Below are positions 1 through 45,342 of a stretch of 64,000 nucleotides of DNA, in pieces. A program made the translations under genes and the position numbers. Numbering within the stretch: the first letter of the stretch is position 1; each line of letters opens with the position of its first letter. Under the pieces are notes generated by a model. That model did no database searches and was not told the DNA's origin. It saw only the letters and a list, made by a program, of their open reading frames with translations. The DNA comes from an uncultured Actinomycetota bacterium. Its GTDB lineage: Bacteria > Actinomycetota > Actinomycetes > Propionibacteriales > Nocardioidaceae. The stretch spans positions 437,195-501,194 of the forward strand of contig CAVWDJ010000002.1 of the NCBI GenBank assembly GCA_963753705.1. Reading direction: 5' to 3'.

Positions 1-1
1 C

Positions 2-1231
2 GCCCACAACCCGCTCTCGCTCAACCTCGACCCCGACTTCTACAAGCTCAACCCGGGCCTCGACCTCGGGCACTGGTCGGAGTCGGCGGCGACGCTGCTG
101 GTGAACTCGACGAGCTCCCAGGTCATGTACCAGCTGTCGTCCTACATCGCGGCCGACCCGAAGGCGATGGCGTTCATCAACGGGAAGCCCGAGCACGACG
201 GCCCCTACACGATGCGGGTGAACCCGGCGTACCAGCACCTGCAGCTGCCGGTCGACTCGTGGCCGCTGCTCGACACCTGGCAGTTCAAGACGGCGCCCAA
301 CTCCTGCCTCAAGGCGCAGGGCGACGCCATGCCGCCCTACATGCCCCTGATCGCCAACCCGGTCACGAGCCTGCAGCTCGTCGCCCAGGCGATGCTCTAC
401 AACTGGCCCAACGTCGAGACCGGGTGCACGGGGACCGGGACCCAGGACGACCCCTACCAGCTCGGGCGCGTGGCTCCCCAGGGGCTGGGCAACCGGTTCA
501 TGCTCGGTCTGGTGACCCTGGGCGACGCCCAGCGCTACGGGCTGACGACCGCGAGGCTGCAGGCATCACCCGGTCACTACGTGGCCGCGGACGACGCGGG
601 GATCAAGGCCGCGCTCTCGCTGGCGGGCAAGACCTCGAAGCTGCGCCCCTTCGACCTGACCCAGACCGAGATCCGACGCTCCTCGACGGCGTACCCGGGC
701 TCCATGCTCGTGTACACGGCGGCGAAGACCTACGGCCTGCCCGCGGCCACCGCACAGCACGTCGCCCAGTTCATCCGGGTGTCGTCGACCGAGGGGCAGA
801 AGCCCGGGCGTGGCAACGGGCAGCTCGCCGCCGGCTACGTGCCGCTGGCGAACTCCGGCGTGACCCGGGGCCTGTACCAGCAGGCCCAGGACGTCGCGGC
901 CGCCGTCGCCGCGCAGAAGGCGCCGCCGGCCCCACCTGCCGGACCTCCGTCGAAGCCGGCCGGTGGCCCGCCGGCCAACCCGTCGCACGGCGGTGCCCCG
1001 CCGGCCGGGCTTCCGGGTGACGCACCCCCGGGCACGACGCCGTCGACCGAGCCGGCGGCGGCGCCGCCCGACGACGGCACCACGACGGTCGCGGACGGGA
1101 CGCTCGTCAAGACCGCAGCGGTCTCGAACGGCGGTGCGGGACTCCTGGTCCTGCTGATCATCGGCTGCGTCGTGGCCGGGGTCGGGGCGATCGTCGGCCG
1201 CACCATCCTGACGAGCAGGGGACTGCGATGA
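2..1231 (+). CDS. 5'-truncated surface protein, probably PstS/PBP-like substrate-binding family, with Pro-rich linker and C-terminal TM anchor
   Basis: Frame is open from base 2 (AHNPLSLNLDPDFYKLNPGL...), so the gene starts left of the window. C-terminus is a Pro/Gly-rich linker, hydrophobic GGAGLLVLLIIGCVVAGVGAIVG and basic tail RTILTSRGLR. Stop overlaps the next ATG (ATGA). Family call is mostly from context. Confidence 0.55.
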   Translation, partial: AHNPLSLNLDPDFYKLNPGLDLGHWSESAATLLVNSTSSQVMYQLSSYIAADPKAMAFINGKPEHDGPYTMRVNPAYQHLQLPVDSWPLLDTWQFKTAPNSCLKAQGDAMPPYMPLIANPVTSLQLVAQAMLYNWPNVETGCTGTGTQDDPYQLGRVAPQGLGNRFMLGLVTLGDAQRYGLTTARLQASPGHYVAADDAGIKAALSLAGKTSKLRPFDLTQTEIRRSSTAYPGSMLVYTAAKTYGLPAATAQHVAQFIRVSSTEGQKPGRGNGQLAAGYVPLANSGVTRGLYQQAQDVAAAVAAQKAPPAPPAGPPSKPAGGPPANPSHGGAPPAGLPGDAPPGTTPSTEPAAAPPDDGTTTVADGTLVKTAAVSNGGAGLLVLLIIGCVVAGVGAIVGRTILTSRGLR

Positions 1232-2175
1232 GCGCGCCGACGCTGACCCCGCCACCAGCAGCGGTCCCGCCACCGGCGCGGCCCGCGGTCGCGTACGGCC
1301 GGCCGATCCGCCCCGGGGAGCCGGCCGAGGCGCTCTACGTGTTCTCCTCGGCCTGCACGATCGTGGCGCTGATCTGCCTGTGGATGCTGCTGCAGATGAT
1401 CGTCCTCGGCCGGTTCAGCGAGGCCAGGGCCCAGCACCTGCTCTACACCGAGTACCGCAGCCAGCTGGCGACCGAGACGGCTCCGACCGGGGCTCTGGAC
1501 TACGACGGCAGACCGGTCGTCGCCGGCAGCCCGGTGGCGCTGATGTCGATCCCGGCCCTCGGCCTCCACGACGTCGTCGTGGTCGACGGCACCGCGTCGG
1601 GGAACCTGCTCGACGGGCCCGGTCACCTGCGCACGACCCCCTTGCCGGGCAACGTCGGCACCTCGCTGGTCATGGGTCGCAGCACGACGTACGGGGCGCC
1701 GTTCGGCACGATCACCGCGCTGCGACCCGGCGACTCGATCCGCGTGGTCGGTGCCCAGGGCTCCGTCACCTACGTCGTCCGGGACCTCCGTCGAGCAGGT
1801 GACCCGATCCCGCCGTCGCCGACCGGGCCGAGGGCGGGCCGGCTCATCCTGGCCACCGCCGCCAGCACGGGGACCCTGTCCAGGCTGCACCCGACCGACG
1901 TGGTCTACGTCGACGCCGACACCACGAAGGCCTTCCCCTCGGGTCCGGTCTACCCGGCCGTCCCCGACGCCGAGCGGGCGATGCAGCACGACACCGGCGC
2001 GCTCCCGTTGCTGGTGCTCCTGCTGGCGTTCGTCGCCGGTCTGGTCCTCGCCGTGAGCGTGGCCCGCCGGCGGTTCCGAGACGCGCTGGTCTGGCTGGTG
2101 GCAGCACCGGTCGCGATCGCGCTCGCATGGGCGGTGACCGACCAGGTCATGCGCCTCCTCCCGAACTTGATGTAA
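1228..2175 (+). CDS. Sortase-fold membrane protein (class E-like), catalytic residues apparently absent
   Basis: GPGHLRTTPLPGNVGTSLVMGRSTTYGAPF...LRPGDSIRV...TYVV...RLILATA follows the class E sortase pattern GPGHxxxTxxPGxxGNxxxAGHRTTYGxPF...LTLTTC. One N-terminal TM and two C-terminal TMs. Confidence 0.8.
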   Translation: MSAPTLTPPPAAVPPPARPAVAYGRPIRPGEPAEALYVFSSACTIVALICLWMLLQMIVLGRFSEARAQHLLYTEYRSQLATETAPTGALDYDGRPVVAGSPVALMSIPALGLHDVVVVDGTASGNLLDGPGHLRTTPLPGNVGTSLVMGRSTTYGAPFGTITALRPGDSIRVVGAQGSVTYVVRDLRRAGDPIPPSPTGPRAGRLILATAASTGTLSRLHPTDVVYVDADTTKAFPSGPVYPAVPDAERAMQHDTGALPLLVLLLAFVAGLVLAVSVARRRFRDALVWLVAAPVAIALAWAVTDQVMRLLPNLM

Positions 2176-2223
2176 CCGCATCAAGGAATGACGAAGCAGA
2201 AACCGAGATCAGGAGAGCATCTG

Positions 2224-4131
2224 ATGTCTGTCCGTAAGATCAGCGCCAAGCTGGGACTCGCGGCCGTGGCCGTGTCCGGCCTGGCCCTCACCGCGCTGGC
2301 CCCGGCCAATGCGGACACCGTGCCGGGCCACGACAGCGTGCCCGGTACGTACACCCTCGGGACCACAGTCATCGGCGTAGGGTCCGACACCCTTCAGTGG
2401 GTGGACGACAAGCTCTCCGCCGACTACGACGCGACCACCCCGGCCGTGGCCTGGGCGAACTTCGACGCCTGCCTGGGCAACACCTCCGCCGGTGCCCCGG
2501 GTCTCGGCGACAACCCCGACGGCTCCGGCTTCCCCTGCGGTGCCGACCACACCGGCACCAAGGCCGGTGTGAAGCGTGACGAGGGCGTCGTGGACCCGGC
2601 TGCCGCCGGGGGCGCGCTCCCGAGCGGCTCGGGCGACGGTCGCACGCTCCTCCGTACGCCGACCGACAAGCTCTTCATGGACGTGGCCTACGGCCGTTCC
2701 TCGGGGCCGATCAACACCACCGACCTCGCGGCCGGTGAGATCGCCCTTCCCTTCGCGGTCGACAAGATCGTCGTGGCGACGCACCCCGGTGGTCCGGCTC
2801 CGGCGTCGCTGACCGGTCAGCAGATCCTCAAGATCTACAACGGCACCTACACCAACTGGAACCAGGTCGGCGGCAAGAACGCCACGATCCACCCCTACCT
2901 GCCGAAGGCGGGCTCCAGCACCCTGAACGCGTTCCAGTCCTTCCTGGCAGCGCTGGACGGCGTCAACGAGGCCCCGGGCACCGACAACGACCCGACCTCG
3001 CACTCGGCCGCGTCACAGATCTGGCAGGGTCAGCCCGGCGCTCCGGCGATCACGGACGGCAACTGGAACACCGGGTCTCCCACGGCCGTTCCGCCCACCG
3101 CGGCGAACGTCGAGGAGCACGACCCGTCGGTGATCATCAAGGACGCCAACGCGATCGAGCCCTTCTCCTACGGGCGGGCCCAGCTGGCCAACGGCGCCTC
3201 GCAGACCGTGCGGATCGAGGGCGGCTGGTCCGCGGACCGCGAGCTGTACCACGTCGTGCGCGGGCAGAACATCGCCGGCGCAGCGACGACGCCCTTCGTC
3301 TACGGCAGTGACGGCGGAGTGCTGGAGAACCTCTTCTCCAACACCGGCTGGGTGTGCACCAACGCCACCGCGAAGGCCGACATCGCCGGCGCCGGCTTCT
3401 GGCCGCTCCAGACCGGTACGACGACGGGCCGCTGCGGTGTGAAGAACGCCAACACCGAGGACACCATCAACCCGTTCGCGTCCAACGGCGTGGACGAGGG
3501 TGCCGCCACCTCCACCAGCGCCTTCTTCCACTCGGGCACGGTCCACGTCACGGTCACCGGTGGCGCGTCCACCCCGACCGGGTCGGTCCAGCTCGTCGTC
3601 GCGAACCCGTCGACGCCGACCGGGTCACCGGCCGCGTCGTACCACAAGACCGTCGCGCTGAACGCCGACGGTGAGGCTGCGATCACGCTGCCCGCGACGG
3701 TCTCCGGCATGAAGACGTTCGACGTCGCCTACCTGCCGACGTCCTTCGGTGCGAAGTCCTCGGCCGGTGGCCACACCGCCCTCGGCTCGTCCTACACCGA
3801 GTTCAGCGCCAAGGTCCCCGTGGCCAAGGTCGCGACCACGGTGAAGGCGAGCGCCAAGCCCACCACCCTGGCGAGCTCCAAGGCCAACACCAAGGTGACC
3901 GCGACCGTCAAGGCGGTCTCGGGCACGGCCAAGCCCACCGGCACGATCACCATCATGCTCGGGAGCAAGAAGGTCGGCACCGGGAAGCTCAAGAACGGCA
4001 CCGTGACCATCACGGTCAAGGGCACGTCGCTCAAGAAGGGCACCAACAAGCTCGTCGTCAGGTACGTCCCGACGACCGGCTTCAAGGCGCCGGCGAAGTC
4101 GCCGAGCGTCACGGTCCACCGCACCAAGTGA
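2224..4131 (+). CDS. Secreted PstS-like phosphate-binding-fold protein with C-terminal Ig-like (Big_3-type) domain(s)
   Basis: Start re-picked at ATG 2224 after AGGAG. Sec signal ends ALAPANA-D. PstS-like motifs: GVGSDT, GSGDG, YGRSS, FAVDKIVVA, LTGQQILKIYNGTYTNWNQVGG, GSST. Lys/Thr-rich beta-strand tail PTGTITIMLGSKKVGTGKLKNG. Confidence 0.75.
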   Translation: MSVRKISAKLGLAAVAVSGLALTALAPANADTVPGHDSVPGTYTLGTTVIGVGSDTLQWVDDKLSADYDATTPAVAWANFDACLGNTSAGAPGLGDNPDGSGFPCGADHTGTKAGVKRDEGVVDPAAAGGALPSGSGDGRTLLRTPTDKLFMDVAYGRSSGPINTTDLAAGEIALPFAVDKIVVATHPGGPAPASLTGQQILKIYNGTYTNWNQVGGKNATIHPYLPKAGSSTLNAFQSFLAALDGVNEAPGTDNDPTSHSAASQIWQGQPGAPAITDGNWNTGSPTAVPPTAANVEEHDPSVIIKDANAIEPFSYGRAQLANGASQTVRIEGGWSADRELYHVVRGQNIAGAATTPFVYGSDGGVLENLFSNTGWVCTNATAKADIAGAGFWPLQTGTTTGRCGVKNANTEDTINPFASNGVDEGAATSTSAFFHSGTVHVTVTGGASTPTGSVQLVVANPSTPTGSPAASYHKTVALNADGEAAITLPATVSGMKTFDVAYLPTSFGAKSSAGGHTALGSSYTEFSAKVPVAKVATTVKASAKPTTLASSKANTKVTATVKAVSGTAKPTGTITIMLGSKKVGTGKLKNGTVTITVKGTSLKKGTNKLVVRYVPTTGFKAPAKSPSVTVHRTK

Positions 4132-4198: not shown

Positions 4199-5056
4199 AT
4201 GACCATGAGCACCATCGACCCGACGCAGGAGATTCCTGCGGTCGGGTCCCAGGCCCCGACGAAGGCGCACCCCGCGAAGACGCTCGCGACGCTGGAGGCG
4301 CGCGAGGTGAGCTGCTGGTTCGGCGACCACCTGGTGCTCGACCGCGTCTCGTTGACGATGCCGGCCGGGGGCATCACCGCCCTGATCGGGCCGTCGGGCT
4401 GCGGCAAGTCGACGTTCCTCCGCACCCTCAACCGGATGCACGAGCTGGTGCCGAGCGCGCAGCTGGCCGGTGAGGTGCTGCTCGACGGCACGGACGTGTA
4501 CGCGCCCGAGCGCAAGCTCACCGACGCCCGGCGCGAGATCGGCATGGTGTTCCAGAAGCCCAACCCCTTCCCGGCGATGTCGATCCGCGACAACGTGCTC
4601 GCCGGGCTCAGGCTCACCGGCACCAAGGCCGGCCGCGACGAGAAGGAGGAGCTCGTCGAGCACTGCCTCCGGCTCGGCGGCCTCTGGAACGAGGTGAAGG
4701 ACCGGCTCGACGCGCCGGGCGGTGGGCTGTCGGGTGGTCAGCAGCAGCGGCTGTGCATCGCCCGGTCGATGGCCATCAAGCCCCGCGTGCTGCTCATGGA
4801 CGAGCCCTGCTCGGCCCTCGACCCCACCTCCACCCGCGTGATCGAGGAGACGATGAAGTACCTCGCCCAGGAGGTCACGATCGTCATCGTCACCCACAAC
4901 ATGCAGCAGGCAGCCCGGGTGTCGGACCAGACCGCGTTCTTCCTGGCGTCGCACAACACTCCCGGCGTCATCGTCGAGCACGGCGAGACTGCTGCGATGT
5001 TCGAGCACCCCCAGGACCAGCGCACCCGCGACTACGTGCAGGGACGGTTCGGCTGA
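4199..5056 (+). CDS. pstB: Phosphate ABC transporter ATP-binding protein
   Basis: Walker A GPSGCGKST, FLRTLNRMHE, VFQKPNPFP, signature LSGGQQQRLCIAR, LMDEPCSALDP, VTHNMQQAARVSD, C-terminal TRDYVQGRFG. Confidence 0.95.
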   Translation: MTMSTIDPTQEIPAVGSQAPTKAHPAKTLATLEAREVSCWFGDHLVLDRVSLTMPAGGITALIGPSGCGKSTFLRTLNRMHELVPSAQLAGEVLLDGTDVYAPERKLTDARREIGMVFQKPNPFPAMSIRDNVLAGLRLTGTKAGRDEKEELVEHCLRLGGLWNEVKDRLDAPGGGLSGGQQQRLCIARSMAIKPRVLLMDEPCSALDPTSTRVIEETMKYLAQEVTIVIVTHNMQQAARVSDQTAFFLASHNTPGVIVEHGETAAMFEHPQDQRTRDYVQGRFG

Positions 5057-5781
5057 CCGGGCTGCGCCGCGCGGCCGGAGCAGCCGCGACGGTCGGGTTG
5101 CTCGCCGGGCTCGCCGGGCTCGTCGCGTCGGAGGGCCGTGGTGGCGCACAGGCGATGCCGAGTCCCGTCGTACCGCTCGCTCCGGACGTCAAGATCGCCC
5201 CGGCCGCCGCGCACCCTGCGACGGCCGGGCCGCGCACCGTCAGCGCGGCCTGGGTCAGTCACGTCGCAGCGGCCGCCGGGATCCCGGCACCCGCCGTCCG
5301 CGCGTACGGCGCCGCGACCCTGCGCGTGAACCGCATCGACCCCGGCTGTCACCTGGGCTGGACGACCCTGGCCGGGATCGGCTGGGTCGAGTCGCAGCAC
5401 GGCACGATCGGTGGCCGACTGCTCGGGGAGGACGGGAGGTCCGACCGGCCCGTGCTCGGACCGGTCCTCGACGGGCGGGGCGGCACGGCGGCGGTCCGAT
5501 CGGCGACGGGGACCTGGGAGCGCGCCGTGGGACCGCTGCAGTTCCTGCCGTCCACCTGGGACCGCTGGGCGGCCGACGGCGACGGCGACGGCCGCGCCGA
5601 CCCGCAGGACCTCGACGACGCCGCGCTCGCCGCGGGCCGCTACCTGTGTGGGGCAGGTGGCGACCTCGCGGTGGGGTCCGGCTGGGTGACGGCCGTGCGT
5701 GCCTACAACCACGCCGACGCCTACGTACGCGCGGTCTACGACGCCGCGTCGGCGTATGCGACGCGGGTGGGTTCCGACTGA
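5053..5781 (+). CDS. Lytic transglycosylase (SLT-like) protein
   Basis: WTTLAGIGWVESQHG (catalytic Glu), AVGPLQFLPSTW, DGDGDGRADPQDLDDAALAAGRYLC, AYNH. Start uncertain; the N-terminal hydrophobic stretch begins about 5053. Confidence 0.8.
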   Translation: MTGLRRAAGAAATVGLLAGLAGLVASEGRGGAQAMPSPVVPLAPDVKIAPAAAHPATAGPRTVSAAWVSHVAAAAGIPAPAVRAYGAATLRVNRIDPGCHLGWTTLAGIGWVESQHGTIGGRLLGEDGRSDRPVLGPVLDGRGGTAAVRSATGTWERAVGPLQFLPSTWDRWAADGDGDGRADPQDLDDAALAAGRYLCGAGGDLAVGSGWVTAVRAYNHADAYVRAVYDAASAYATRVGSD

Positions 5782-5798: not shown

Positions 5799-6110
5799 TC
5801 AGGCGCTGACAGGCCCCGGCATCTCCCAGGCGTCCTCGCCGCTGACGGCCGCCACCGTCAGCTGGTGCTGCTCGTCGAACGTCTCGGCCACCGGCGCGTC
5901 CTGGACGTTCTCCGGGATGCGCACGGCCGTGATCGACTCGAGGCGCACCACGACGTGCTCGGAGTGCGTGCTGAGCACAAGGCCGTGGCCGTCGAGGCCG
6001 GCGACGTTGCCGCGCAGCCAATGGCTCTGCACCAGCACCTCGACCGGCAGGTGGTTGCTGTCGGCCCGGCGCAGGGCCGTACCGATGGTGAACAGCGTTG
6101 AATCGTGCAT
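5799..6110 (-). CDS. Small (103 aa) hypothetical protein with Sm/Hfq-like small beta-barrel pattern
   Basis: C-terminal part of track ORF 5799..6758; ATG at 6110 gives MHDSTLFTIGTALRRADSNHLPVEVLVQSHWLRGNVAGLDGHGLVLSTHSEHVVVRLESITAVRIP. Confidence 0.65.
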   Translation of the reverse strand: MHDSTLFTIGTALRRADSNHLPVEVLVQSHWLRGNVAGLDGHGLVLSTHSEHVVVRLESITAVRIPENVQDAPVAETFDEQHQLTVAAVSGEDAWEMPGPVSA

Positions 6111-6244
6111 GATGAAACCCCCCCAAAGCCCCCCCGGGCTCTGCACTTGTGCGTTCAGAGTAGGCCCCACATCGACGGTTCGGGGGGCAACTTGCCGTGA
6201 AATCTTCGCCAGACAGGTAAAGATCTGCGGAACCCTTCTCGTCG

Positions 6245-7087
6245 CTAGCCCACCACGACGGATCCCGCGGTGGCGGATCCACCGCTCGTCCAGCCGCCGT
6301 TGCTGCCCACGACCCAGTCGCGGCCGTCGAAGCCGACGTGGGTCAGCCCCAGCCGCGGGGCCCGGCCCACGATGTAGGAGGCGATCGACCAGCCCTGCGG
6401 ACCGGACACCGCCGCGATCTCGAGACGGGAGCCTGCCCCCACGCTCACCTGGACCGTCCCGAAGGCCGGGGCGAGGGTGCGACGCAGCGCAGCGGCTCGC
6501 CGGGCGGCGGGAGGCCGCGCACCGGGGGACGCCGTCAGGTGGCAGGCGAAGGCAGCGGGGGAGAAGCCGGTGAGGGCGGACGCCAGGGCGCGGGCGTCCG
6601 GCTCGTACACGGCGTAGGCCGAGGGGTAGCCCGAGCGCTGCACGCGCTGCGCGGCGACGGTGACCGGCATCGACTCGTAGCCGGGGACCCGGGCGAGCGC
6701 GTCGTAGAACGCGTTGGTGGCGTGGACCGGGTCGAGGATCTCGCGCGGGGTGCCCCATCCCTGTGACGGCCGCTGCTGGAAGAGGCCCAGCGAGTCTCGG
6801 TCACCGCCCCGCAGGTTGTAGAGCTTCGACTCCTGGAGCGCGGCGGCGAGCGCGATGGTGGCGGCGTGCGCCGGCATCCCCCGGTGGACCGCGATCGCCG
6901 AGATCAGGCTCGCGTTGCGCGCCTGGGTCGCGGTCAGGACGACGCTGAGCCCGTTGACCTTCGTCGTGCACAGCCCGGCACTCTCGTCCTTGGACGTCGA
7001 CGAGTGGCGGGCGATGCCGTACCAGACTCCGCCCACCACCAGGGCGAGCGGGACCACGACCGCGGCCGTCCGCCGCACGATGCTCAT
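6245..7087 (-). CDS. Membrane-anchored/secreted protein with lysozyme-like domain (conserved actinobacterial QESxLx[20 protein letters not shown] family)
   Basis: ATG 7087 overlaps the dapD stop (ATGA). N-terminal TM, then [31 protein letters not shown] and [11 protein letters not shown]. Confidence 0.75.
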
Positions 7088-8037
7088 CGGTTCTGGTGCA
7101 GCGCCTCGTTGAGAGCCACGCCACCGGCACGCCAGGGCACGACCTCGACGGTGCCGGTCACGGAGTTGCGGCGGAAGAGCAGGTTGCTGCCGCCGGACAG
7201 GTCGAGCGCCTTGACCACCCTGCCGTCGGGGAGCGTGACCTTGGTACCCGCGGTGATGTAGCAGCCCGCCTCGACGACGCAGTCGTCGCCGAGCGAGATG
7301 CCGATGCCGGCGTTCGCGCCGAGCAGACAGCGCTCGCCGATCGACACGACCTGCGTCCCGCCACCCGACAGCGTGCCCATGATCGAGGCCCCACCGCCCA
7401 CGTCGGAGCCGTCGCCCACGACGACACCGGCGGTGATCCGGCCCTCGACCATCGAGGAACCCACCGTGCCGGCGTTGTAGTTGACGAAGCCCTCGTGCAT
7501 GACGGTGGTGCCCTCGGCCAGGTGCGCTCCGAGGCGGACCCGGTCGGCGTCGGCGATCCGGACGCCGGACGGCACGACGTAGTCGGTCATCCGGGGGAAC
7601 TTGTCGACCCCGTGGACCTGGACCGGCCCCTGGCCGCGCAGCCGCAGCCTGGTGGCCTCGAAGTCGTCGACGGGGCAGGGTCCGGCGCTCGTCCACACCA
7701 CGTTGGTCAGGACGCCGAAGATGCCCTCGAGGTTGGCGCCGTGAGGGCGGACCAGCCGATGGGAGAGCAGGTGCAGGCGGAGGTAGGCGTCGGGCACGTC
7801 GCGCGGCGGATCGGCCAGGTCGACCGCGACGTGGACGACCTCGGTGCGGACCCGCCGGGCCGGGTGGTCGCCGGCCAGCGCGGCGAGGGCGCTGGGCGCC
7901 TCGGCCTCGTCGGTCGGCTCACCGAGCGCCGGGGTCGGGAACCACGCCTCCAGGACGCTGCCCTCGCTCGCCCCGCTGGTCACGACGCTGGCCAGACCCC
8001 AGCCGCTCGCCCGCCCGGGTGTGCTCCGCTCCGTCAC
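7084..8037 (-). CDS. dapD: Tetrahydrodipicolinate N-succinyltransferase
   Basis: [62 protein letters not shown] and hexapeptide repeats. GTG 8037 chosen as start. Confidence 0.93.
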
Positions 8038-8077
8038 GCCGAGGAGTCTACGGAGGGGGAGCACGTCGCCGAGCCCG

Positions 8078-8629
8078 TCACTGGCCCGTCCGTCCGTCGA
8101 TCCGCTCGCGCAGCAGGTCGGCGTGCCCGCAGTGTCGTGCGTACTCCTCGATCAGGTGGACGACGATCTCCCGCAGCTCGCTCTGGTCGCCGTCGGGGCC
8201 GACCAGCGTGCCGAGGTCGTCGTACTGCTCGTAGACCACGCGGGCGTGGTCGACCTCGGTCCGCCAGGCGGTCCAGGCCTCGGCGACGACCTCGGGGTCG
8301 TCCACGGCGCCGTTGAAGTCGAGGTCACGGTCGTCGGGCGACTTGAAGGGCCGCGGGAGCTCCATGTGGCCCTCGATGAAGCGGCGGAACCAGTGGAACT
8401 CGACCGACGCCAGGTGCCGGACCAGGCCCAGGAGCGACATCGAGCTCGGCGGGACGGACCGCTGCGCCAGCTGCTCGGCGTCCAGGCCCTCGCACTTCAT
8501 CTCGAACGTCATCCGGAAGTGCTCGAGGTACTCGGCCAGCACCGCTTTCTCCCCGCGGGGCGTGGCGCCGGTGTCGCGTGGGTCGTCCTCGGGGTCGACC
8601 CACAGGTCGGGGAACTGCCGCTCACTCAT
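8078..8629 (-). CDS. DinB/DUF664 family protein
   Basis: [18 protein letters not shown]...[28 protein letters not shown], the His pattern of the DinB fold. Confidence 0.9.
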
Positions 8630-8713
8630 GGGGCCGCACTCTTCCCGGTCCGGGCGGGTCGGCTCAAATCCGTTCCGGTGGCGCTCCGCGACCCTCGTCG
8701 ACCTCGTCGGCCC

Positions 8714-10264
8714 TCAGCGGCCCATCGCGGCGAGGTTCGCCTCGTGTGCGGCAGCCAGCCCGGCCGGACCGACGTCGAGGCTGACGTACCAGATCCACCC
8801 CACTCCGGCACCGATCCGCCGGTAGCCGTCGGCCAGGGTCGGGACCTGCCAGGTGGAGTGTGACAGGGCGTCCACGACCACGAACGTCGGGTGCTCCCGT
8901 GCGAGGAGCGCGGCCAGACCGGCGGTGCCCGCCGGCTGGGTGGCGTCGATGAAGTCGCGCATCCGCTGGTCGAACAGCTGGTAGGGCCACAGGGATGTCC
9001 GCTGGGAGACGGCGAGGACCTGGGGTGCGTCGATCGACACGATCTGTGCGTCGGCAGGCTGGGTCCCGAGCACCGCCAGAGCGTCGGCACGCTCCAGGCT
9101 GAGGGTGTCCTGGCGCGAGGTCACCGCCTCGAGGCTCGCCAGCCCGACGCACGCCGCGACGAGCAGGGCCACCGCGGGAAGCCTCCCGCGGAGCGGGAGT
9201 CTGGTCGCGAGCAGGACGAGGCCTCCGGCCGCACCGAGTGCAGCGAAGGGGAGCACCACGAAGAGGTCGGGGCCGCCGTTGACGACGCACATCGTCCAGA
9301 CGACCCCGGCCAGGCCGCCCGCGCCCACCGCGTTCAGCCGCCAGGCGACGGTCGAGGGGGCCTCGGCCGACAGCACGACGTACGGCACCGCTCTGCCCGC
9401 CAGCACCAGCAGCGTGACCAGGCCGACCACGACCACGGCCAGCGAGGCGTGGTAGTCGCGCCAGAACTGGCGCAGCACCAGGGTGTCGAAGATGTTCGGC
9501 TGCGTCGTGTAGCGCAGGTTCACCACGAAGAACCCGTCCACGGCCGCGCGCGCGGCCCCCGCCTGGAGGAAGTAGAGCGCCGCGAGCACGGTCGGGACCA
9601 GTCCACCGGTCACGAACCGGACCAGGGCGCGAGCCCGACCCGGACCGGCCGTCACCGCAGCCACGGCCACGGCCGCGACCGCGACCGCGATCGCCGGCTG
9701 CCAGGTGAGGGTGGCCAGCGCGGCGCAGACGCCGGCGCCGAACCAGCGACGTCGCCCGGTCAGGATCAGCGAGAGGAGGAGGAAGACCAGCATCGTGGTC
9801 TTCTCCCGGGGACCGCTCGAGGCGAGCTCGATGAAGCACTCGAAGGTCAGGAACACCGCCGGGGCCAGGAGCCCAGCGGGCCGCGAGCCGAAGGTGTCAC
9901 GGGCCAGCACGCTGACGAGCGCGCAGCACAGCGCGGAGAGCACCAGGAAGAAGAGACGAGCCGAGAGCACGGGGTCGAGGCCGACCAGGCCTCCCAGCCG
10001 GATCGCCAGGCCGGGCACCGCGTCGGCGAGCGGGCCGACCGTGTTGAACACCTCGACGTACGGCGGCACGCCTCGCGCGACCTGCTCACCGCCGTAGACG
10101 AAGAGCCCGAGGTCGTGGGTGAGCGGGCCGTCGAACCCGTGCAACGCGTAGACGACGAGCGAGACCAGGCCGACGAGGACGGGGTCGAGCACCGAGGCCG
10201 GAACGGTGAGGGCTCTCGGCCGCCGGGCAGGAGCATCCGGCAGGGGTGACTCGACCAGGGTCAT
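8714..10264 (-). CDS. Multi-TM GT-C-fold glycosyltransferase (PMT-like)
   Basis: Loop DLGLFVYGGEQVARGVPPYVEVFNTVGP after the first TM, about 11 TM segments, soluble C-terminal domain. Confidence 0.65.
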   Translation of the reverse strand: MTLVESPLPDAPARRPRALTVPASVLDPVLVGLVSLVVYALHGFDGPLTHDLGLFVYGGEQVARGVPPYVEVFNTVGPLADAVPGLAIRLGGLVGLDPVLSARLFFLVLSALCCALVSVLARDTFGSRPAGLLAPAVFLTFECFIELASSGPREKTTMLVFLLLSLILTGRRRWFGAGVCAALATLTWQPAIAVAVAAVAVAAVTAGPGRARALVRFVTGGLVPTVLAALYFLQAGAARAAVDGFFVVNLRYTTQPNIFDTLVLRQFWRDYHASLAVVVVGLVTLLVLAGRAVPYVVLSAEAPSTVAWRLNAVGAGGLAGVVWTMCVVNGGPDLFVVLPFAALGAAGGLVLLATRLPLRGRLPAVALLVAACVGLASLEAVTSRQDTLSLERADALAVLGTQPADAQIVSIDAPQVLAVSQRTSLWPYQLFDQRMRDFIDATQPAGTAGLAALLAREHPTFVVVDALSHSTWQVPTLADGYRRIGAGVGWIWYVSLDVGPAGLAAAHEANLAAMGR

Positions 10265-10448
10265 CGCGGACCGTCCGGCAGGTCATCTCGGGAGAGGGCG
10301 GACCTCACCAGCCCACGGTCCTGCAGCCAGGTGAGAAATGGATGTGGAACAGGTGAGGAGACGCTGATTCCGGAACGAGGATCCCTCAGCGGGTTACCGG
10401 GTGGCCGCCGTCGACTCGCGCGCCGTACCCTGGGAGGCACAGGCGTTC

Positions 10449-10665
10449 GAGCCGTCATCAGCGGCGAGCCTCCGGAAGAACGGCCACACCCCGGTGCGGC
10501 TCACTAGACCCGGACGGGTGGGCCCGTCACAGCCTGCAACGAGCGGTTGTCTCCGCTGGTCGAGCATCCCGACCCGCGGGCGCAGCAAGCGAGGTGGTAC
10601 CGCGGTCCCCGGGCATCCGGGGGTCGTCCTCGTGCAGGACGAGGACCGACGACCGCAGGAGAGCA
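10449..10665 (+). ncRNA. Translational ileS T-box riboswitch (actinobacterial ultrashort stem I type)
   Basis: Ile specifier ATC at 10457-10459 in GAGCCGTCATCAGCGGC. Conserved GAGCCTCCGGAAGAACGGCC...TAGA...CGGGT..GCCCGTCACAGCC. T-box AAGCGAGGTGGTACCGCG at 10587-10604. Downstream GGTCGTCCTCGT/ACGAGGACCGACGACC helix next to the AGGAG RBS. Confidence 0.92.
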
Positions 10666-10670
10666 CCCCG

Positions 10671-13600
10671 ATGACCTATCCGAAGGTCTCCACCGACCCC
10701 GCCGTCGACGCGAGCGCCGACGGCGTGCCGGCCACCCCGCGCTTCCCTCGCATCGAGGAGCGCGTGCTGGCCTACTGGGAGGCCGACGACACGTTCCGGG
10801 CCAGCGTCGAGCAGCGCGACGCGGGCGAGAACGGCGGCAACGAGTTCGTCTTCTACGACGGGCCGCCGTTCGCGAACGGGCTCCCGCACTACGGCCACCT
10901 GCTCACCGGCTACGTCAAGGACCTGATCCCGCGCTACCAGACGATGCGCGGACGCCGGGTCGAGCGCCGTTTCGGCTGGGACACGCACGGGCTGCCCGCC
11001 GAGCTCGAGGCGATGCGCCAGCTCGGCATCAAGACCACCGACGAGATCCTCGAGATGGGGATCGAGGCGTTCAACGCCGAGTGCCGCAAGTCGGTCTTCG
11101 AGTACACCGACGAGTGGCGCGAGTACGTGACCCGGCAGGCGCGCTGGGTGGACTTCGGCCACGACTACAAGACCCTCGACCTCGACTACATGGAGTCGGT
11201 GATGTGGGCCTTCCAGCAGCTGTGGGAGAAGGGCCTGGCCTACGAGGGCTTCCGCGTCCTTCCCTACTGCTGGAACGACGAGACCCCGCTGTCCAACCAC
11301 GAGCTCCGGATGGACGAGGACGTCTACCAGCTGCGACAGGATCCCGCCGTCACGGTGGGGTGCCGCCTCGAGACCGGCGAGATCGCGCTGGTCTGGACCA
11401 CGACTCCGTGGACCCTCCCGTCCAACCTGCTGATCATGGTCGGCCCCGACATCGACTACGTCGTGGTCGAGTCCGACGTCAGCGGCACCACCGAGCGCTA
11501 CGTCGTGGGGGCAGCCCGGCTGGCGGCGTACGCCCGCGAGCTGAAGAACGACGACAGCGACTCGGTCCTCGACCAGGTCGTCGAGCGGCTGAAGGGCCGC
11601 GACCTCCTCGGCCGCAGCTACACGCCGCCGTTCACCTACTTCGAGGGGCATCCCCACAGTCACCGCGTCGTCGAGGCCGACTTCGTCACCACCGAGGACG
11701 GCACCGGCCTGGTCCACAGCGCCGGTGCCTTCGGTGAGGAGGACAAGGCGATCACCGACCGCGAGGGCATCGAGCTCGTGGTGGCGGTGGCGAAGAACGG
11801 CACGTTCACCTATCCCATCACCGACTACGAGGGCCTGCACGTGTTCGACGCCAACCTGGCGATCATCGAGCACCTCAAGAACGCGACCCGGAACCTCCGT
11901 CCGTCGGTCGACCCGGTCGGGGACCTCGACACCGGGTCGGTCACGCCGGGCACGGTCCTGCTCAAGCGCGAGTCCTACGAGCACTCCTACCCCCACTGCT
12001 GGCGCTGCCGGGAGCCGCTGATCTACATGGCGGTCTCGTCGTGGTTCGTCAGCACCACCAAGATCCGCGACCGGATGCTCGACCTCAACCAGCAGATCCG
12101 GTGGGTGCCCGAGCACATCAAGGACGGCCAGTTCGGCAAGTGGCTGGAGAACACGCGCGACTGGTCGATCTCGCGCAACCGGTTCTGGGGGAGCCCGATC
12201 CCGGTCTGGAAGAGCGACGACCCGGCGTACCCCCGGATCGACGTGTACGGCTCGCTCGACGAGCTGCAGCGCGACTTCGGCGTGCGGCCCGACGACCTGC
12301 ACCGGCCCTTCATCGACGAGCTGACGCGCCCGAACCCGGACGACCCGACCGGGTCCTCCACCATGCGCCGGGTCACCGACGTCATGGACTGCTGGTTCGA
12401 GTCCGGCTCGATGAGCTTCGCCCAGGTGCACTACCCGTTCGACAACGCCGACTGGTTCGAGCACCACTTCCCGGGCGACTTCATCGTCGAGTACATCGGC
12501 CAGACCCGTGGCTGGTTCTACACGATGCACGTGCTCGCGTCGGCGATCTTCGAGCGGCCGGCGTTCGAGACCTGCCTGTCGCACGGCATCGTCCTGGGCA
12601 GCGACGGCCAGAAGATGTCGAAGTCGCTGCGCAACTACCCCGACGTGCGCGAGGTCTTCGACCGCGACGGCGCCGACGCCATGCGGTGGTTCCTCATGTC
12701 GTCGCCGATCCTGCGCGGAGGCAACCTGATCGTCACCGAGCAGTCGATCCGCGAGGGCGTCCGCCAGGTGCTGATCCCGCTCTGGAACTGCTGGTACTTC
12801 TTCGCGCTCTACGCCAACGCCGCCGGCTACGACGCGCGGCGCTCCACGACGTCCACCCACCCGATGGACCGCTACCTGCTGGCCAAGACCCGTCAGTACG
12901 TCGAGACCTCGACCCGTCAGATGGACGACTACGAGGTGGCCAATGCCTGCGACACCACGCGGGGCTTCCTCGACGTGCTCTCCAACTGGTACATCCGTCG
13001 GTCGCGCGAGCGCTTCTGGGCCGCCGACGGCGTCGCCGACTCCGATGCCTTCGACACCCTCTTCACCGTCCTCGAGACCGTCTGCCGGGTGGCCGCGCCG
13101 CTGCTCCCGCTCACGACCGAGGAGGTCTGGCGCGGACTCACCGGGGAGCGGTCGGTGCACCTGACCGACTGGCCGTCCGTCGACGACCTGCCGGCCGACG
13201 GTGAGCTCGTCGGTGCGATGGACCAGGTCCGCGACGTCTGCTCCGCGGGCTCGGCCCTGCGCAAGGGCGCGTCTCTGCGCAACCGCCTGCCGCTGTCGAC
13301 GATGACGGTGGTCGTGGCCGGCGCCGACCGGCTCGCGGGCTTCGAGGACATCGTCGCCGACGAGCTCAACGTGAAGTCGGTCCGGCTGCTCGACGCCGAC
13401 CACCCCGACGCCGCGTCGTACGGCGTCTCGCAGCGGCTCACGGTCAACGCCCGCGCCGCCGGTCCCCGGCTGGGCAAGGACGTGCAGACCGCGATCAAGG
13501 GGTCCAAGTCGGGCGACTGGTCGGTCTCCGACACCGGCACGGTCACGGCCGGGGGACTGGTCCTCGAGGAGGGCGAGTTCACCCTCGAGACGGTCGCCTC

Positions 13601-13907
13601 GGGCGGCGACGGCTCCGCGACCGGGATGCTCCCCGGTGGCGGGTTCGTGGTCCTCGACACCGCGGTCACGCCGGAGCTCGAGGCCGAGGGAGTGGCGCGC
13701 GACCTGGTCCGGGCCGTCCAGCAGGCCCGACGCGACGCCGGGCTCGACGTGTCCGACCGGATCGCCGTGAGCCTGGTCGCCAGCGCCGAGGTGGCCGACG
13801 CAGCCCGTACGCACGCCGAGCTGATCGCCCGCGAGACCCTCGCGACGTCGTTCGACGTCAGCGAGGGCGACGTGGACTCGCCGGTGATCGAGCTCGAGCG
13901 GGCCTGA
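10671..13907 (+). CDS. ileS: Isoleucyl-tRNA synthetase (type 2)
   Basis: [54 protein letters not shown]. True start ATG 10671; the track ORF from 10401 runs through the T-box. Confidence 0.97.
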
Positions 13908-13946
13908 CCGGGACCCTGAGGCGCCCTGTGGAGCGCTGGTCACTGC

Positions 13947-14030
13947 TTCATCATGTGATGCAGGCGAACCGTCACTTCTCATGGCGAACTCACCGTGTGA
14001 AGCCATGCTCCACCTGCATCACATGATGAA
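13947..14030. repeat. 84-bp palindromic intergenic element, copy 1 (REP/MITE-like)
   Basis: Perfect 18-bp terminal inverted repeat TTCATCATGTGATGCAGG (13947-13964) / CCTGCATCACATGATGAA (14013-14030). First 24 nt are identical to 43327-43350. Confidence 0.85.
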
Positions 14031-14077
14031 ACTGAGGTCAGCCCGGTGTTCGCGACCGCCGATGACAGGATGGGCAC

Positions 14078-15148
14078 ATGCCGATCGACCTGGACCTGAG
14101 TGCCGACGTCGTCGCGCTCACCGAGCAGCTGGTGGACATCGAGTCGGTGAGCCGTCACGAGCAGCAGATCGCCGACGCCGTCGAGGGGGCGCTGGCGAGT
14201 CTGCCCCACCTGACCGTCACCCGGCGCGGCCACACGGTCGTCGCGCGTACCGAGCTCGGCCGGGGCGAGCGGGTCGTCCTGGCCGGCCACCTCGACACGG
14301 TGCCGCTCAACGACAACCTGCCCAGCCGCAACGACGGGACCGCCCTCCACGGCCTCGGCAGCTGTGACATGAAGGGCGGGGACGCGGTCATCCTGAAGCT
14401 GGCCGCCGCGGTGAAGGAGCCGGTCCGCGACGTGACGTTCATCCTCTACGAGGCGGAGGAGATCGAGAGCGAGTTCAACGGCCTCGGCAGGCTCGGTGCG
14501 AGCGACCCCGAGCTGATGCGGGCCGACTTCGCGATCCTCATGGAGCCCTCCGACGGAGTCGTCGAGGCCGGCTGCCAGGGCACCATGCGCGTCGAGGTCG
14601 CCGCTCATGGCGAGCGCGCCCACAGCGCCCGGTCGTGGAAGGGCGTCAACGCGATCCACCGGGCGACGCCGATCCTCGAGCGGCTCTCGGCGTACGACGC
14701 GCGGATGCCGGTCATCGACGGCCTGACCTACCACGAGGGGCTCAACGCCGTCGGCATCAGCGGCGGCGTCGCCGGCAACGTGCTGCCCGACCTGTGCACG
14801 GTGTCGGTCAACTACCGCTTCGCTCCCGACCGCAGCGAGGCCGAGGCGGAGGCGTTCCTCCGCGACTTCTTCTCCGGGTACGACGTGCTGGTGGCCGACA
14901 GTGCACCCGGCGCCCTGCCCGGCCTCGACCGCCCGGCGGCCAAGGCGTTCGTCGAGGCGGTCGGTGGGACGGTCAACCCGAAGTTCGGCTGGACCGACGT
15001 CTCCCGGTTCGCCGCGCTCGACGTGCCGGCGGTCAACTTCGGTCCCGGCGACCCGATGCTGGCCCACAAGCAGGAGGAGTTCGTGCCCCTGGAGCAGATC
15101 CGCCACTGCGAACGCGTGCTCACCGACTGGCTCCGAGGGGACCGATGA
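14078..15148 (+). CDS. dapE: Succinyl-diaminopimelate desuccinylase
   Basis: M20 motifs AGHLDTVP, GLGSCDMKGG, YEAEE, HSARSW, FGWTDV, PGDPMLAHKQEE. Confidence 0.95.
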   Translation: MPIDLDLSADVVALTEQLVDIESVSRHEQQIADAVEGALASLPHLTVTRRGHTVVARTELGRGERVVLAGHLDTVPLNDNLPSRNDGTALHGLGSCDMKGGDAVILKLAAAVKEPVRDVTFILYEAEEIESEFNGLGRLGASDPELMRADFAILMEPSDGVVEAGCQGTMRVEVAAHGERAHSARSWKGVNAIHRATPILERLSAYDARMPVIDGLTYHEGLNAVGISGGVAGNVLPDLCTVSVNYRFAPDRSEAEAEAFLRDFFSGYDVLVADSAPGALPGLDRPAAKAFVEAVGGTVNPKFGWTDVSRFAALDVPAVNFGPGDPMLAHKQEEFVPLEQIRHCERVLTDWLRGDR

Positions 15149-15888
15149 CCGACAAGCACGAGAAGTTCAAGGGCCCGGTGGTGATGCGCCGGAGCCAGGT
15201 CGACGGCACCACCACCGACCAGCGCCTCCTCGACTCCCGGGGGGCCACCGACTGGGTGCACACCGACCCCTGGCGCGTGCTCCGCATCCAGGCCGAGTTC
15301 GTCGAGGGCTTCGGCGCGCTGGCCGAGCTCGGCCCGGCCATCGCGTGCTTCGGCTCCGCCCGCACCCGACCCGACAACCCGATGTATGCCAAGGGTGAGC
15401 AGGTAGGCCGCGCGTTGACGGCCGCCGGCTTCGCAGTGATCACCGGTGGCGGGCCGGGCGCGATGGAGGCCGTCAACAAGGGTGCCAGCGAGGCCGGCGG
15501 CACGAGCGTCGGTCTCGGCATCGAGCTGCCCTTCGAGTCCGGCCTCAACCAGTGGGTCGACATCGGGATCAACTTCCGCTACTTCTTCGCGCGCAAGACG
15601 ATGTTCGTCAAGTACGCCCAGGGCTTCATCGTGCTGCCGGGCGGACTCGGCACCCTCGACGAGCTGTTCGAGGCCCTGACCCTGGTCCAGACCCAGAAGG
15701 TCACCCGGTTTCCACTGGTGCTGCTCGGCAGCGACTACTGGCGCGGCCTGCTCGACTGGCTCGGCGACACGGCGCTCACGCACGGCACGATCAACCAGTC
15801 CGACATCGACATGCTCCACGTGACCGACGACGTCGACGAGGCCGTGGGGTTGATGGTGGAGGCGCGCTCCAAGGACCCACAGCGATGA
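15145..15888 (+). CDS. LOG-family (TIGR00730-type) nucleotide phosphoribohydrolase
   Basis: FGSAR, ITGGGPGAMEA, YFFARKTMFVKY, PGGLGTLDELFE. ATG overlaps the dapE stop. Confidence 0.92.
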   Translation: MTDKHEKFKGPVVMRRSQVDGTTTDQRLLDSRGATDWVHTDPWRVLRIQAEFVEGFGALAELGPAIACFGSARTRPDNPMYAKGEQVGRALTAAGFAVITGGGPGAMEAVNKGASEAGGTSVGLGIELPFESGLNQWVDIGINFRYFFARKTMFVKYAQGFIVLPGGLGTLDELFEALTLVQTQKVTRFPLVLLGSDYWRGLLDWLGDTALTHGTINQSDIDMLHVTDDVDEAVGLMVEARSKDPQR

Positions 15889-16199
15889 TGTGGTTCTTCG
15901 CGATCCTGATCGTGCTGGCCCTCGGCGCGGTCGCCGTGGTGGCCTCGGGGCGCGGCCAGCCGATGGGCCCGTCGTACGACGACGCTCCCGACTCGCTCGT
16001 CCCGTCCGACGGCCCGGTGACTGCCGAGGACCTGCGCCGGATCCGGTTCCCGCTGGCCTTCCGCGGCTACCGGATGGCCGAGGTCGACGCCCTGCTCGAG
16101 CGGCTCGCGGAGGAGCGCGAGGCGGCCGACCGCGACAGCGCGTCACCTTCCGGCCAGGGGCCCGAAGGTGACACCGACCCGCCCGCGTCGGCACACTGA
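15885..16199 (+). CDS. DivIVA-domain membrane protein
   Basis: N-terminal TM then TAEDLRRIRFPLAFRGYRMAEVDALLERLA. ATGA overlap with the upstream stop. Confidence 0.85.
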   Translation: MMWFFAILIVLALGAVAVVASGRGQPMGPSYDDAPDSLVPSDGPVTAEDLRRIRFPLAFRGYRMAEVDALLERLAEEREAADRDSASPSGQGPEGDTDPPASAH

Positions 16200-16205
16200 T
16201 CGTCC

Positions 16206-16613
16206 GTGAAGCCCGAGTACATCGTCTACGTCCTCACCTTCTTGTCCGCGGTGGTGGTCGTGCTGACGCGGGTCCGGCTCTCCCAGGCCCGGGCCGCTGG
16301 TCATCACCAGGTCGGCATGGGGACGGTCAACGCCCACACGGCCTGCGGTGTGCTCGGGATCGCGCTGTGGGTGTTCTTCCTGGTCACCGGGCACGACAAC
16401 TCGTGGGTCGGCGTCGTCGCCCTCTTCTTCTACTGGCTCACCGCCCTGATCGGCCTGTTGATCCTGATGCGGTGGGTGCCGAGCCGCGGGAAGCACGCGT
16501 CGGGCACCGCTGACGACCGGTGGTCGGAGGGGCCGGGGTTGTCGGTCCTCGCGCATGTGGGGATGCTGGTGGGCGTGCTCGTGTTCACCTGGTACTTCGC
16601 CACCCACAGCTGA
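16206..16613 (+). CDS. Hypothetical 4-TM membrane protein
   Basis: 135 aa, four hydrophobic segments, co-oriented in the operon. Confidence 0.7.
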   Translation: MKPEYIVYVLTFLSAVVVVLTRVRLSQARAAGHHQVGMGTVNAHTACGVLGIALWVFFLVTGHDNSWVGVVALFFYWLTALIGLLILMRWVPSRGKHASGTADDRWSEGPGLSVLAHVGMLVGVLVFTWYFATHS

Positions 16614-16622
16614 GGTCTGCCG

Positions 16623-17405
16623 ATGACACGCCTGTCTCGGGACCCGCGACGACGCCAGGGGCTCGTCGCGGCCGTGCTGTCGCTCGCGCTCCTGCCGGCC
16701 CTGCTGGTCCTCCCCGCCCGTGCCGCGACCGAGTCCCGCCCCGCCGTGATCGGGCGTCGCGTGATCGGGCACTCGGTCCAGGGGCGCCCGATCGTGGCCT
16801 GGCACCTCGGTGAGCCCGGCAAGCGGAAGGTCGTGCTGATCTCGCTCATGCACGGCAACGAGCCCGCGCCGCGCAGGATCCTCGACGACCTGCTCGACGG
16901 GCAGCCCGTGCACGACGTGAACCTGTGGGTCGTCCCGGTCTACAACCCCGACGGACTCGCTCACCACACGCGCAAGAACGCCCACGGCGTCGACCCGAAC
17001 CGCAACTACCCCTACAAGTGGGCGCGGCTCACGGGCAGCTACTACTCCGGGCCCAAGCCCGCCTCCGAGCCCGAGACGCGGGCGATGATGGCGTTCCTGT
17101 CCAAGGTGAAGCCGGCGTACGTGCTGTCCTTCCACCAGCCCCTCCACGGTGTCGACATCACCGCGCGCCCGGCGTTCTCCCGGCGGGTCGCCCAGGCGCT
17201 CGGCCTGCCGATGACGCACCTGAACTGCGGCAGCAGCTGCCACGGCACGATGACCATGTGGTTCAACCACGCGTTCCCGGGCTTCGCGCTCACCGTCGAG
17301 TACGGGCCGTCCCCGTCGGCCGCCAAGCTCCGGGCCGCGCCCGACCGGATCCTGCGGCTCTTCGGCGCCTGGCGCGGCGGCGTGCGAGGAGTAGCCCGCA
17401 CCTGA
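16623..17405 (+). CDS. Secreted M14 zinc carboxypeptidase (MpaA-like)
   Basis: Signal peptide; HGNE, NPDG, RKNAHGVDPNRNY, SEPET, LSFHQ, TVEY. Confidence 0.85.
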   Translation: MTRLSRDPRRRQGLVAAVLSLALLPALLVLPARAATESRPAVIGRRVIGHSVQGRPIVAWHLGEPGKRKVVLISLMHGNEPAPRRILDDLLDGQPVHDVNLWVVPVYNPDGLAHHTRKNAHGVDPNRNYPYKWARLTGSYYSGPKPASEPETRAMMAFLSKVKPAYVLSFHQPLHGVDITARPAFSRRVAQALGLPMTHLNCGSSCHGTMTMWFNHAFPGFALTVEYGPSPSAAKLRAAPDRILRLFGAWRGGVRGVART

Positions 17406-33856: not shown

Positions 33857-33865
33857 GCGGTCGGA

Positions 33866-33895
33866 GCGATCCGCGGCGAGCCTGCTCGCAAGGCC
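33866..33895. repeat. ~30-bp REP-like palindrome, copy B
   Basis: Reverse complement GGCCTTGCGAGCAGGCTCGCCGCGGATCGC matches 21266-21296. Confidence 0.7.
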
Positions 33896-33933
33896 GTCTG
33901 ACACCGGCCACGCGGGTGACGCTGCCGGCAGCC

Positions 33934-34428: not shown

Positions 34429-34580
34429 GCGGACATCATGCCGGGTTCCGGCAGGCACGCGGAGACCGCCCACGAGGCTTTCGGAGAACGCCTCCGCTGA
34501 GCGGGATTCTCGACGTACGGCGACGCTCCGAGCCGCAGTTTGTCCGCGGGTGCCGGGAGTCCTAACCTCGGGTTGTGTCA

Positions 34581-39462: not shown

Positions 39463-39568
39463 GCAGGGGACCTCGGGAAGGTCTCGCCGTGTAAGACCCA
39501 GTCGCGGGATGCGCGTCGTACAAATGGATTCGTGGTCTGTCGGTGCCCAGGGTTACAGTCGACCAACG

Positions 39569-43200: not shown

Positions 43201-43203
43201 GCG

Positions 43204-43285
43204 GGGCCGGGGGCGAGGCACGTCTCGACCGTCGCCCACGACGTGGGCCGGGGGCGAGGCACGTCTCGACCGTCGCCCACGACGT
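43204..43285. repeat. Exact 41-bp tandem duplication
   Basis: GGGCCGGGGGCGAGGCACGTCTCGACCGTCGCCCACGACGT at 43204 and 43245. Confidence 0.92.
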
Positions 43286-45341: not shown

Positions 45342-45342
45342 G

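Follow-up and report, generated by a model that had tools for sequence, protein, structure and literature searches.

A conserved sortase-fold membrane protein without a catalytic triad in a Pst-like transporter operon of Actinomycetota

The window analysed here, a 64,000-nucleotide stretch of an uncultured actinobacterial genome (G000:C2:437195-501194), opens inside an operon for a Pst-like ATP-binding cassette (ABC) transporter and encodes, close to its start, a 315-residue protein that has the fold of a sortase and is called the pseudo-sortase below. Sortases are cysteine transpeptidases that anchor proteins to the cell wall. The pseudo-sortase is membrane-bound, has a conserved sortase fold and lacks the catalytic triad; it belongs to a Pst-like module in which it is genetically locked to the product of the gene directly upstream, protein X. 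We infer, with a probability of about 55%, that it acts as a non-catalytic receptor or scaffold, in which the barrel and helices would bind the C-terminal tail of X, and maybe that of a second receptor, PBP1, without cleavage, organising PstS-type receptors at the transporter.

The pseudo-sortase retains a class-E-like barrel and lacks the catalytic residues

The open reading frame (ORF) is intact over its full length and lies in DNA of actinobacterial character (72-74% GC). Its ATG shares four bases (ATGA) with the stop codon of gene X. Both the complete ORF and the translational coupling to the upstream gene had been proposed in the original prediction, made from the sequence alone, and both were confirmed. 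The Pfam Sortase profile (PF04203) scored 44.1 bits on the protein against a cut-off of 26.6, with an alignment that covers only profile positions 1-83 of 125 and ends ahead of the Cys region. The best NCBIfam model was class_E_sortase (NF033747), which scored 64.8 bits, below its cut-off of 160, over model positions 10-155 of 211. An AlphaFold2 model computed with 74 homologues had a mean predicted local distance difference test score (pLDDT) of 76; values in the barrel (residues 100-232) were mostly 86-94, with dips in the blocks 121-130 and 151-160. When this model was compared with the PDB using Foldseek, all 50 top matches were sortases, each with probability 1.0. A sortase fold, which had been read from short class E motifs, is what Pfam, profile alignment to PDB structures and AlphaFold2/Foldseek agree upon.

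The closest known sortases are the housekeeping, LAxTG-specific class E enzymes of Actinobacteria, for example S. avermitilis SrtE (5go5/5go6), S. coelicolor SrtE1 (5cuw), C. diphtheriae SrtF (5uus) and T. fusca SrtE (9m2g). They gave the best sequence and fold matches, and share with the pseudo-sortase an N-terminal membrane anchor, an extracytoplasmic eight-stranded barrel and the motifs G-GH, LPG, G(H/R)..YG.PF, L..GD.I, TY.V and L.L.T. In contrast to them, the pseudo-sortase carries an additional C-terminal two-helix hairpin that ends in a conserved LLPNL, and its gene sits in a Pst-like ABC operon and not beside genes for LAxTG substrates.

Catalytic sortases (MEROPS C60) are defined by a Cys in the TLxTC motif, a His at the end of strand beta4 and an Arg on strand beta8, and the pseudo-sortase has none of the three. 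Its sequence reads MGRS around the His position and ILATA around the Cys position; in alignments to class E structures, Arg151 and Ala211 stand opposite the His of GHR and the Cys of TLVTC, respectively. Val225 occupies the Arg position, for which the canonical class E sortase of the same genome (contig C12; AGHR / TLTTC / NRLV) served as the reference. The absence of each of these residues, including that of any RLIV-type Arg, had been noted before and held up in the alignments. The same is true of the confinement of the only two Cys residues, C43 and C50, to the N-terminal transmembrane helix, and of the two extra C-terminal transmembrane helices, which AlphaFold2 places at residues 259-282 and 285-314. 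The only conserved His of the protein, H133 in the GPGH motif, does not point to a substitute catalytic residue, as canonical class E sortases carry it as well without using it in catalysis. From its sequence the pseudo-sortase is predicted to be a three-helix membrane protein with a class-E-like sortase barrel, in which the whole His-Cys-Arg triad has been replaced (R151, A211, V225).

The substitutions are fixed across a family of homologues

Conservation was assessed in a close set of 117 homologues, down to 56% identity, and in a wide set of 130 full-length representatives of 50%-identity clusters, with 34-58% identity to the pseudo-sortase. Position 151 was Arg in all but one of the close homologues (116/117), and either Arg (121) or Lys (9) in the representatives. 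Position 211 was occupied by Ala (102), Ser (11) or Gly (4) in the close set and by Ala (86), Ser (26), Gly (7), Thr (4), Val (4) or Leu (2) in the wide set. His and Cys together were found in no member of either set and Cys was never found at the Cys position; close homologues keeping both residues, as expected after a recent strain-specific loss, were looked for among the 117 and none was present. At the Arg position the representatives carry V, A, T, P, L or I. Compared with class E sortases as a family, the exchanges are His to Arg/Lys, Cys to Ala/Ser/Gly and Arg to Val/Ala.

Elements without a counterpart in canonical sortases are conserved in the representatives as well: R188 (94%), D229 (95%), the hairpin proline P294 and, above all, the C-terminal tail (L310 89%, L311 91%, P312 98%, N313 94%). 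Of all short motifs in the family, LLPNL(L/M) at the extreme C-terminus, at a constant distance of two residues from it, is the best conserved. Within the barrel, the best-conserved stretches are GPGH-R, LPG, GR, G-PF, VRR-GDP-P, RL-L-T and VDA, which, by analogy with solved sortases, would be those lining the groove for the sorting signal.

The ratio of non-synonymous to synonymous substitution rates (dN/dS) was 0.19 for the pseudo-sortase when compared with an 88%-identical orthologue on contig C24 of the same bin, and 0.17, 0.12 and 0.17 for the neighbouring PBP-Ig, pstB and X genes of the same pair of loci. The C24 copy (33000-50000) was considered as a paralogue and rejected: the two loci are 88% identical in nucleotides and syntenic over more than 14 kb including unrelated flanks, and C24 was therefore taken to derive from a co-binned related strain (bin contamination 4.85%). 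Estimates against distant orthologues (loci L008 and L010) were 0.41-0.55, or 0.47-0.55 for two pairs including the pseudo-sortase, at a dS of 0.6-0.8; these were discarded because they are saturated in a genome of 72% GC, and the 88%-identical pair was used instead.

The fixed triad substitutions, together with a dN/dS of 0.19 that is like that of the neighbours, indicate a conserved protein and not a decayed gene. A decaying pseudogene or an assembly artefact, to which the absent catalytic triad might point, is ruled out with near certainty by the intact ORF in hundreds of sequences, by the fixation of the substitutions and by the dN/dS value, and is further contradicted by the conserved new elements, namely the C-terminal hairpin, LLPNL and R188/D229. 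The original prediction of a non-catalytic protein that is not a decayed gene is supported by the family-wide fixation, by a dN/dS close to the 0.12-0.17 of the neighbours, by the confidently modelled barrel and by the strict linkage to the operon. The specific role suggested there, as a scaffold, chaperone or docking subunit, is a hypothesis.

An exhaustive phmmer search of 1.84 billion representatives returned 3589 matches, 206 of them with E < 1e-30. At 50% identity the family thus comprises 206 clusters at this threshold, spread patchily over many actinobacterial families. Among 401 sampled Actinomycetota genomes, about 20 had full-length pseudo-sortase matches, again across many families.

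The pseudo-sortase gene is locked to a PstS-fold protein with a sorting-signal-like tail

In protein X, encoded directly upstream, a signal peptide is followed by a beta domain rich in Cys, a domain with the PstS fold and a disordered, Pro-rich linker, and a transmembrane segment anchors the C-terminus. No Pfam domain was matched on it. Its AlphaFold2 model (pLDDT 85, predicted template-modelling score 0.80) gave M. tuberculosis PstS-1 and PstS-3 and an E. coli PBP as top Foldseek matches, with target-normalised template-modelling scores of 0.70-0.77 over about 440 aligned columns, and the C-terminal half of X is accordingly modelled as a PstS fold. The beta-rich N-terminal part (approximately residues 45-330; G000:C2:435936-436793) contains most of the 12 invariant Cys residues of X and was confidently modelled; it lies outside the PDB fold matches and has no match in Pfam.

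The C-terminal tail of X has the tripartite layout of a sorting signal, with a pentapeptide [VL][VA]xTA (LVKTA here) rather than LAxTG. The consensus of 99 homologues reads [VLMI][VAP][RKT]-T-A-A-V-[ST]-S..GG.LLP..TM..R..[RK]G[LV][RK]; the Thr is present in 99 of 99 and the Arg after the helix in 92 of 99. None of the NCBIfam models of LPXTG anchors or C-terminal sorting signals matched the tail at E values up to 0.1.

Nine other genomes of the sample had a detectable homologue of X, and each of the nine also encoded a full-length pseudo-sortase at a distance of 0.1-5 kb, on that contig and in that orientation. In one sequence, P0241 (1211 residues), an X homologue and a pseudo-sortase are fused in a single chain (37% identity over 800 residues, E 3e-117). 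The fusion retains the helix of X, a linker of about 30 residues and the first helix of the pseudo-sortase, and is topologically consistent.

A tail of this kind could also be bound for another purpose. As a special case of the binding model, the pseudo-sortase might act as a protector or decoy that shields the LAxTG-like signals of both X and PBP1 against the housekeeping sortase of class E and so keeps these proteins membrane-anchored. The genome does encode a canonical class E sortase (AGHR / TLTTC) as well as a class F-like sortase, and the tail of X resembles an LAxTG signal. Some true sortases also take T-A for T-G, S. pyogenes SrtA being reported to recognise LPETA (PMC7586933). Cutting of the X and PBP1 tails by the housekeeping sortase is, however, a supposition, and we regard a protective role as unlikely.

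The module resembles PstSCAB and contains tail-anchored receptors

The window and the 12 kb upstream of it were read together, and contain one co-oriented, largely overlapping operon: two permeases, PBP1, X, the pseudo-sortase, PBP-Ig and PstB, followed by an SLT_2 gene (Table 1). The seven genes up to pstB, with PBP-Ig as a secreted PstS-like/Ig protein, are referred to as the module. Pfam identified two BPD_transp_1 permeases just upstream of the window and a PBP_like_2 protein (E 3e-38). PBP1 (locus L006, 8913-10613, upstream of the window) belongs to the PstS family; it has a signal peptide and a linker rich in Thr and Gly, and is anchored by a transmembrane segment at its C-terminus in place of a lipobox. 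Its anchor is a conserved C-terminal helix, AIVLLPG.YVAW.RR, whereas the canonical pstS product of the genome (contig C7) has the lipobox LTACG. The same gene set was found in a Mycobacteriales metagenome-assembled genome and in Nocardioides sp. CER19.

Table 1 Features of the window around the pseudo-sortase gene (coordinates are positions in the window)
Feature	Position	Strand	Evidence or description
Gene X, 3' part	1..1231	+	ORF; full gene 873 aa, start 1390 bases before the window at G000:C2:435804
Sorting-signal-like tail of X (LVKTAAVS, transmembrane helix, basic ...RGLR end)	1103..1228	+	Homologue alignment
Pseudo-sortase gene, 315 aa	1228..2175	+	Intact ORF, Pfam, NCBIfam, PDB profile alignment, AlphaFold2/Foldseek
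N-terminal transmembrane helix, ~residues 37-61	1336..1410	+	AlphaFold2 helix 32-82; SSAC..W..Q conserved in homologue alignment
Predicted extracytoplasmic sortase-fold beta-barrel, residues 100-232	1525..1923	+	AlphaFold2, Foldseek
Arg151 codon, catalytic His position	1678..1680	+	HMM alignment to 5go5, 5go6, 5uus: opposite His of GHR
Ala211 codon, catalytic Cys position	1858..1860	+	Alignment to class E structures: opposite Cys of TLVTC (5go6)
Val225 codon, catalytic Arg position	1900..1902	+	Alignment with own-genome class E sortase and srt2 paralogue
Predicted C-terminal transmembrane hairpin, helices 259-282 and 285-314, basic RRRFRD loop between	2002..2169	+	AlphaFold2; highly conserved in homologue alignment
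Extreme C-terminal LLPNLM tail	2155..2172	+	Predicted at outer membrane face; conservation in representatives
PBP-Ig, secreted PstS-like protein with Lys-rich Ig-like C-terminus, without membrane anchor	2188..4131	+	PBP_like_2 and Big_3_5
PstB-type ABC ATPase	4199..5056	+	TIGR00972 336.8 bits, just under cut-off 343.2
SLT_2 lytic-transglycosylase-like gene after pstB	5089..5781	+	PF13406 E 6.6e-10

A PstB-like ATPase, two permeases and PstS-fold binding proteins in one operon make up a transporter of the PstSCAB type. Like the PstSCAB systems of E. coli and of M. tuberculosis, the loci of which carry several PstS paralogues, the operon encodes two BPD_transp_1 permeases, a PstB-like ATPase and PstS-fold proteins. 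Unlike them, it encodes three PstS-fold proteins, two of which (PBP1 and X) have C-terminal transmembrane anchors instead of a lipobox; X has a large Cys-rich N-terminal domain, and the operon includes the pseudo-sortase and a wall hydrolase gene. The permeases were no part of the original prediction, nor were the LAxTG-like signal of X, the LLPNL tail and the likely Pho regulation described below.

The pseudo-sortase might also be a structural transmembrane subunit of the permease complex, with a barrel that binds not a protein tail but some component of the cell envelope, for instance lipid II, peptidoglycan or a polymer that contains phosphate. This would fit the transmembrane helices and the LLPNL tail being among the best-conserved parts of the protein; the conserved R135, R151, R188 and R189 could form an anion-binding site, and wall hydrolase genes follow the module both here (SLT_2) and at locus L008 (NlpC/P60). 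Tight coupling and fusion are, however, specific to X and do not involve the permeases, and we see such a subunit as improbable.

A paralogous cassette encodes a related protein with Ser at the Cys position

A second cassette was found at G000:C19:210000-229999 (locus L011), on the minus strand at 5816-16641, with a gene order unlike that of the main operon. It comprises genes for a Big_7 protein, a weak PBP-like protein, the tail-anchored X2 (747 residues), a sortase-like protein (srt2), an ABC ATPase, two permeases and a PBP_like_2 protein. The triad of the srt2 product (G000:C19:220419-221678) reads His, Ser and Arg; the protein matches the full Pfam sortase profile and ends in LLLPNTL. In the srt2 subfamily (100 members), the His position was Arg in 61 and His in 39, the Cys position was Ser in 94, the Arg was kept in 99, and the C-terminus LLPNTL was invariant. 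The subfamily shares with the pseudo-sortase the three-helix architecture, the location in a Pst-like cassette and an X-like tail-anchored protein. It differs in the Ser at the Cys position (94%), the retained catalytic Arg (99%), the His kept by a part of its members and the full Pfam match, and X2 differs from X in having no TAAVSS. The view of srt2 as an active His/Ser/Arg sortase was weakened, as Arg is commoner than His at the His position of its own subfamily. This free interchange of His and Arg suggests that the position serves as a cation or hydrogen-bond donor, and not as a proton shuttle.

These data also bear on whether the pseudo-sortase is still an enzyme with a different chemistry, for example one in which Thr/Ser210 is the nucleophile and acts with Arg/Lys151 to cleave or transpeptidate X at its invariant Thr. 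Among the 130 representatives, position 210, just before the former Cys, is Thr in 98 and Ser in 31, beside the 121 Arg and 9 Lys at position 151; the invariant Thr of X stands in an LAxTG-like position, and the paralogous subfamily combines Ser at the Cys position (94%) with the catalytic Arg (99%). The Thr before the Cys is, however, conserved in canonical sortases too, and is thus inherited and not new evidence. Moreover, most members of the pseudo-sortase subfamily have Ala or Gly in place of the Cys, the Arg that serves the oxyanion or transition state is replaced by V/A/T, Arg is a poor general base, and the His position of the paralogous subfamily readily accepts either residue (R 61 / H 39). 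We consider an altered chemistry quite unlikely.

A PHO-box-like repeat precedes the operon

The direct repeat GTTCtcgtctcGTTCAC is located at G000:C2:431457-431473, 22 nt before the first permease ORF and 5.7 kb upstream of the window, and is also present in the C24 copy of the operon. The PHO boxes of actinobacterial PhoP are 11-nt direct repeats. The repeat matches this form, which suggests phosphate limitation as the inducer of the operon. The pattern GTTC-N7-GTTCAC had 10 matches in the genome as compared with 0 for a reversed control. Other sites precede phoU (C1:70536), the lipoprotein gene pstS (C7:26264) and genes for a PHP phosphoesterase (C12:50181), a type I phosphodiesterase (C12:311481) and an M4 protease (C17:366737). 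The repeat is thus common to the operon and to the phoU and canonical pstS genes of this genome, and the set of sites can be read as a candidate Pho regulon. At locus L010, GTTCACC-type repeats were found in the intergenic region before the first permease, with a locus-wide count that is not above chance at 3 mismatches. That the transporter carries phosphate is suggested by the promoter motif only.

Proposed role of the pseudo-sortase

PBP1 and X are held in the membrane by C-terminal anchors that resemble uncleaved sorting signals. In the proposed mechanism, the pseudo-sortase would use its peptide-binding barrel, which has been retained, together with its conserved transmembrane helices to bind the tail of the co-translated X, an LAxTG-like segment ([VL][VA]xTAAVSS) with a helix and a basic end, and possibly the tail of PBP1 too. 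Through this binding the two receptors would stay, or be arranged, in the membrane beside the permeases instead of being transferred to the cell wall.

Several observations weigh against this role as a receptor or scaffold. The motif of X is only LAxTG-like, its second position being Val, Ala or Pro and its Thr being followed by Ala, and X2 of the paralogous cassette has no Thr motif of the TAAVSS type. The conserved Thr/Ser before the former Cys and the cationic Arg/Lys at the former His position leave room for unusual chemistry. P0241 is a single case of fusion and might stem from a frameshift error where the two genes overlap by 4 bases. The putative Pho regulation is deduced from a motif, and the paralogous C19 cassette has no promoter-proximal PHO-box match, its total counts being at chance.

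A wider proposal is put forward tentatively. Pseudo-sortases may form a new class of accessory subunits of ABC importers, in which the sortase barrel, repurposed as a non-cleaving receptor for C-terminal anchors that resemble sorting signals, tethers several PstS-type receptors to a phosphate-starvation transporter. The invariant LLPN(T/L)x tail, predicted at the outer membrane face and resembling LPxTx, may then serve in cis as a pseudo-substrate, filling the groove or gating it. We see this as a possibility that falls short of an even chance. Full-text literature searches found no natural conserved family of triad-less or Cys-less sortases and no sortases in pst operons.

If the barrel is a non-cleaving receptor for sorting signals, it would represent a clear transition from enzyme to receptor. 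It would also explain the multi-receptor phosphate-scavenging complexes of Gram-positive soil bacteria and provide a natural binding module for LAxTG-like peptides. In public records these genes are named "class E sortase" or "sortase A", which is functionally misleading.

Wall hydrolase genes near the module

The module seems to be accompanied by an enzyme that cuts the cell wall. In the window this is the SLT_2 gene of approximately 720 bp, which is missing from the C24 copy of the operon. At the orthologous Mycobacteriales locus (L008), an NlpC/P60 gene is situated two genes after the pseudo-sortase gene, and the ABC ATPase gene is found at the front of the locus.

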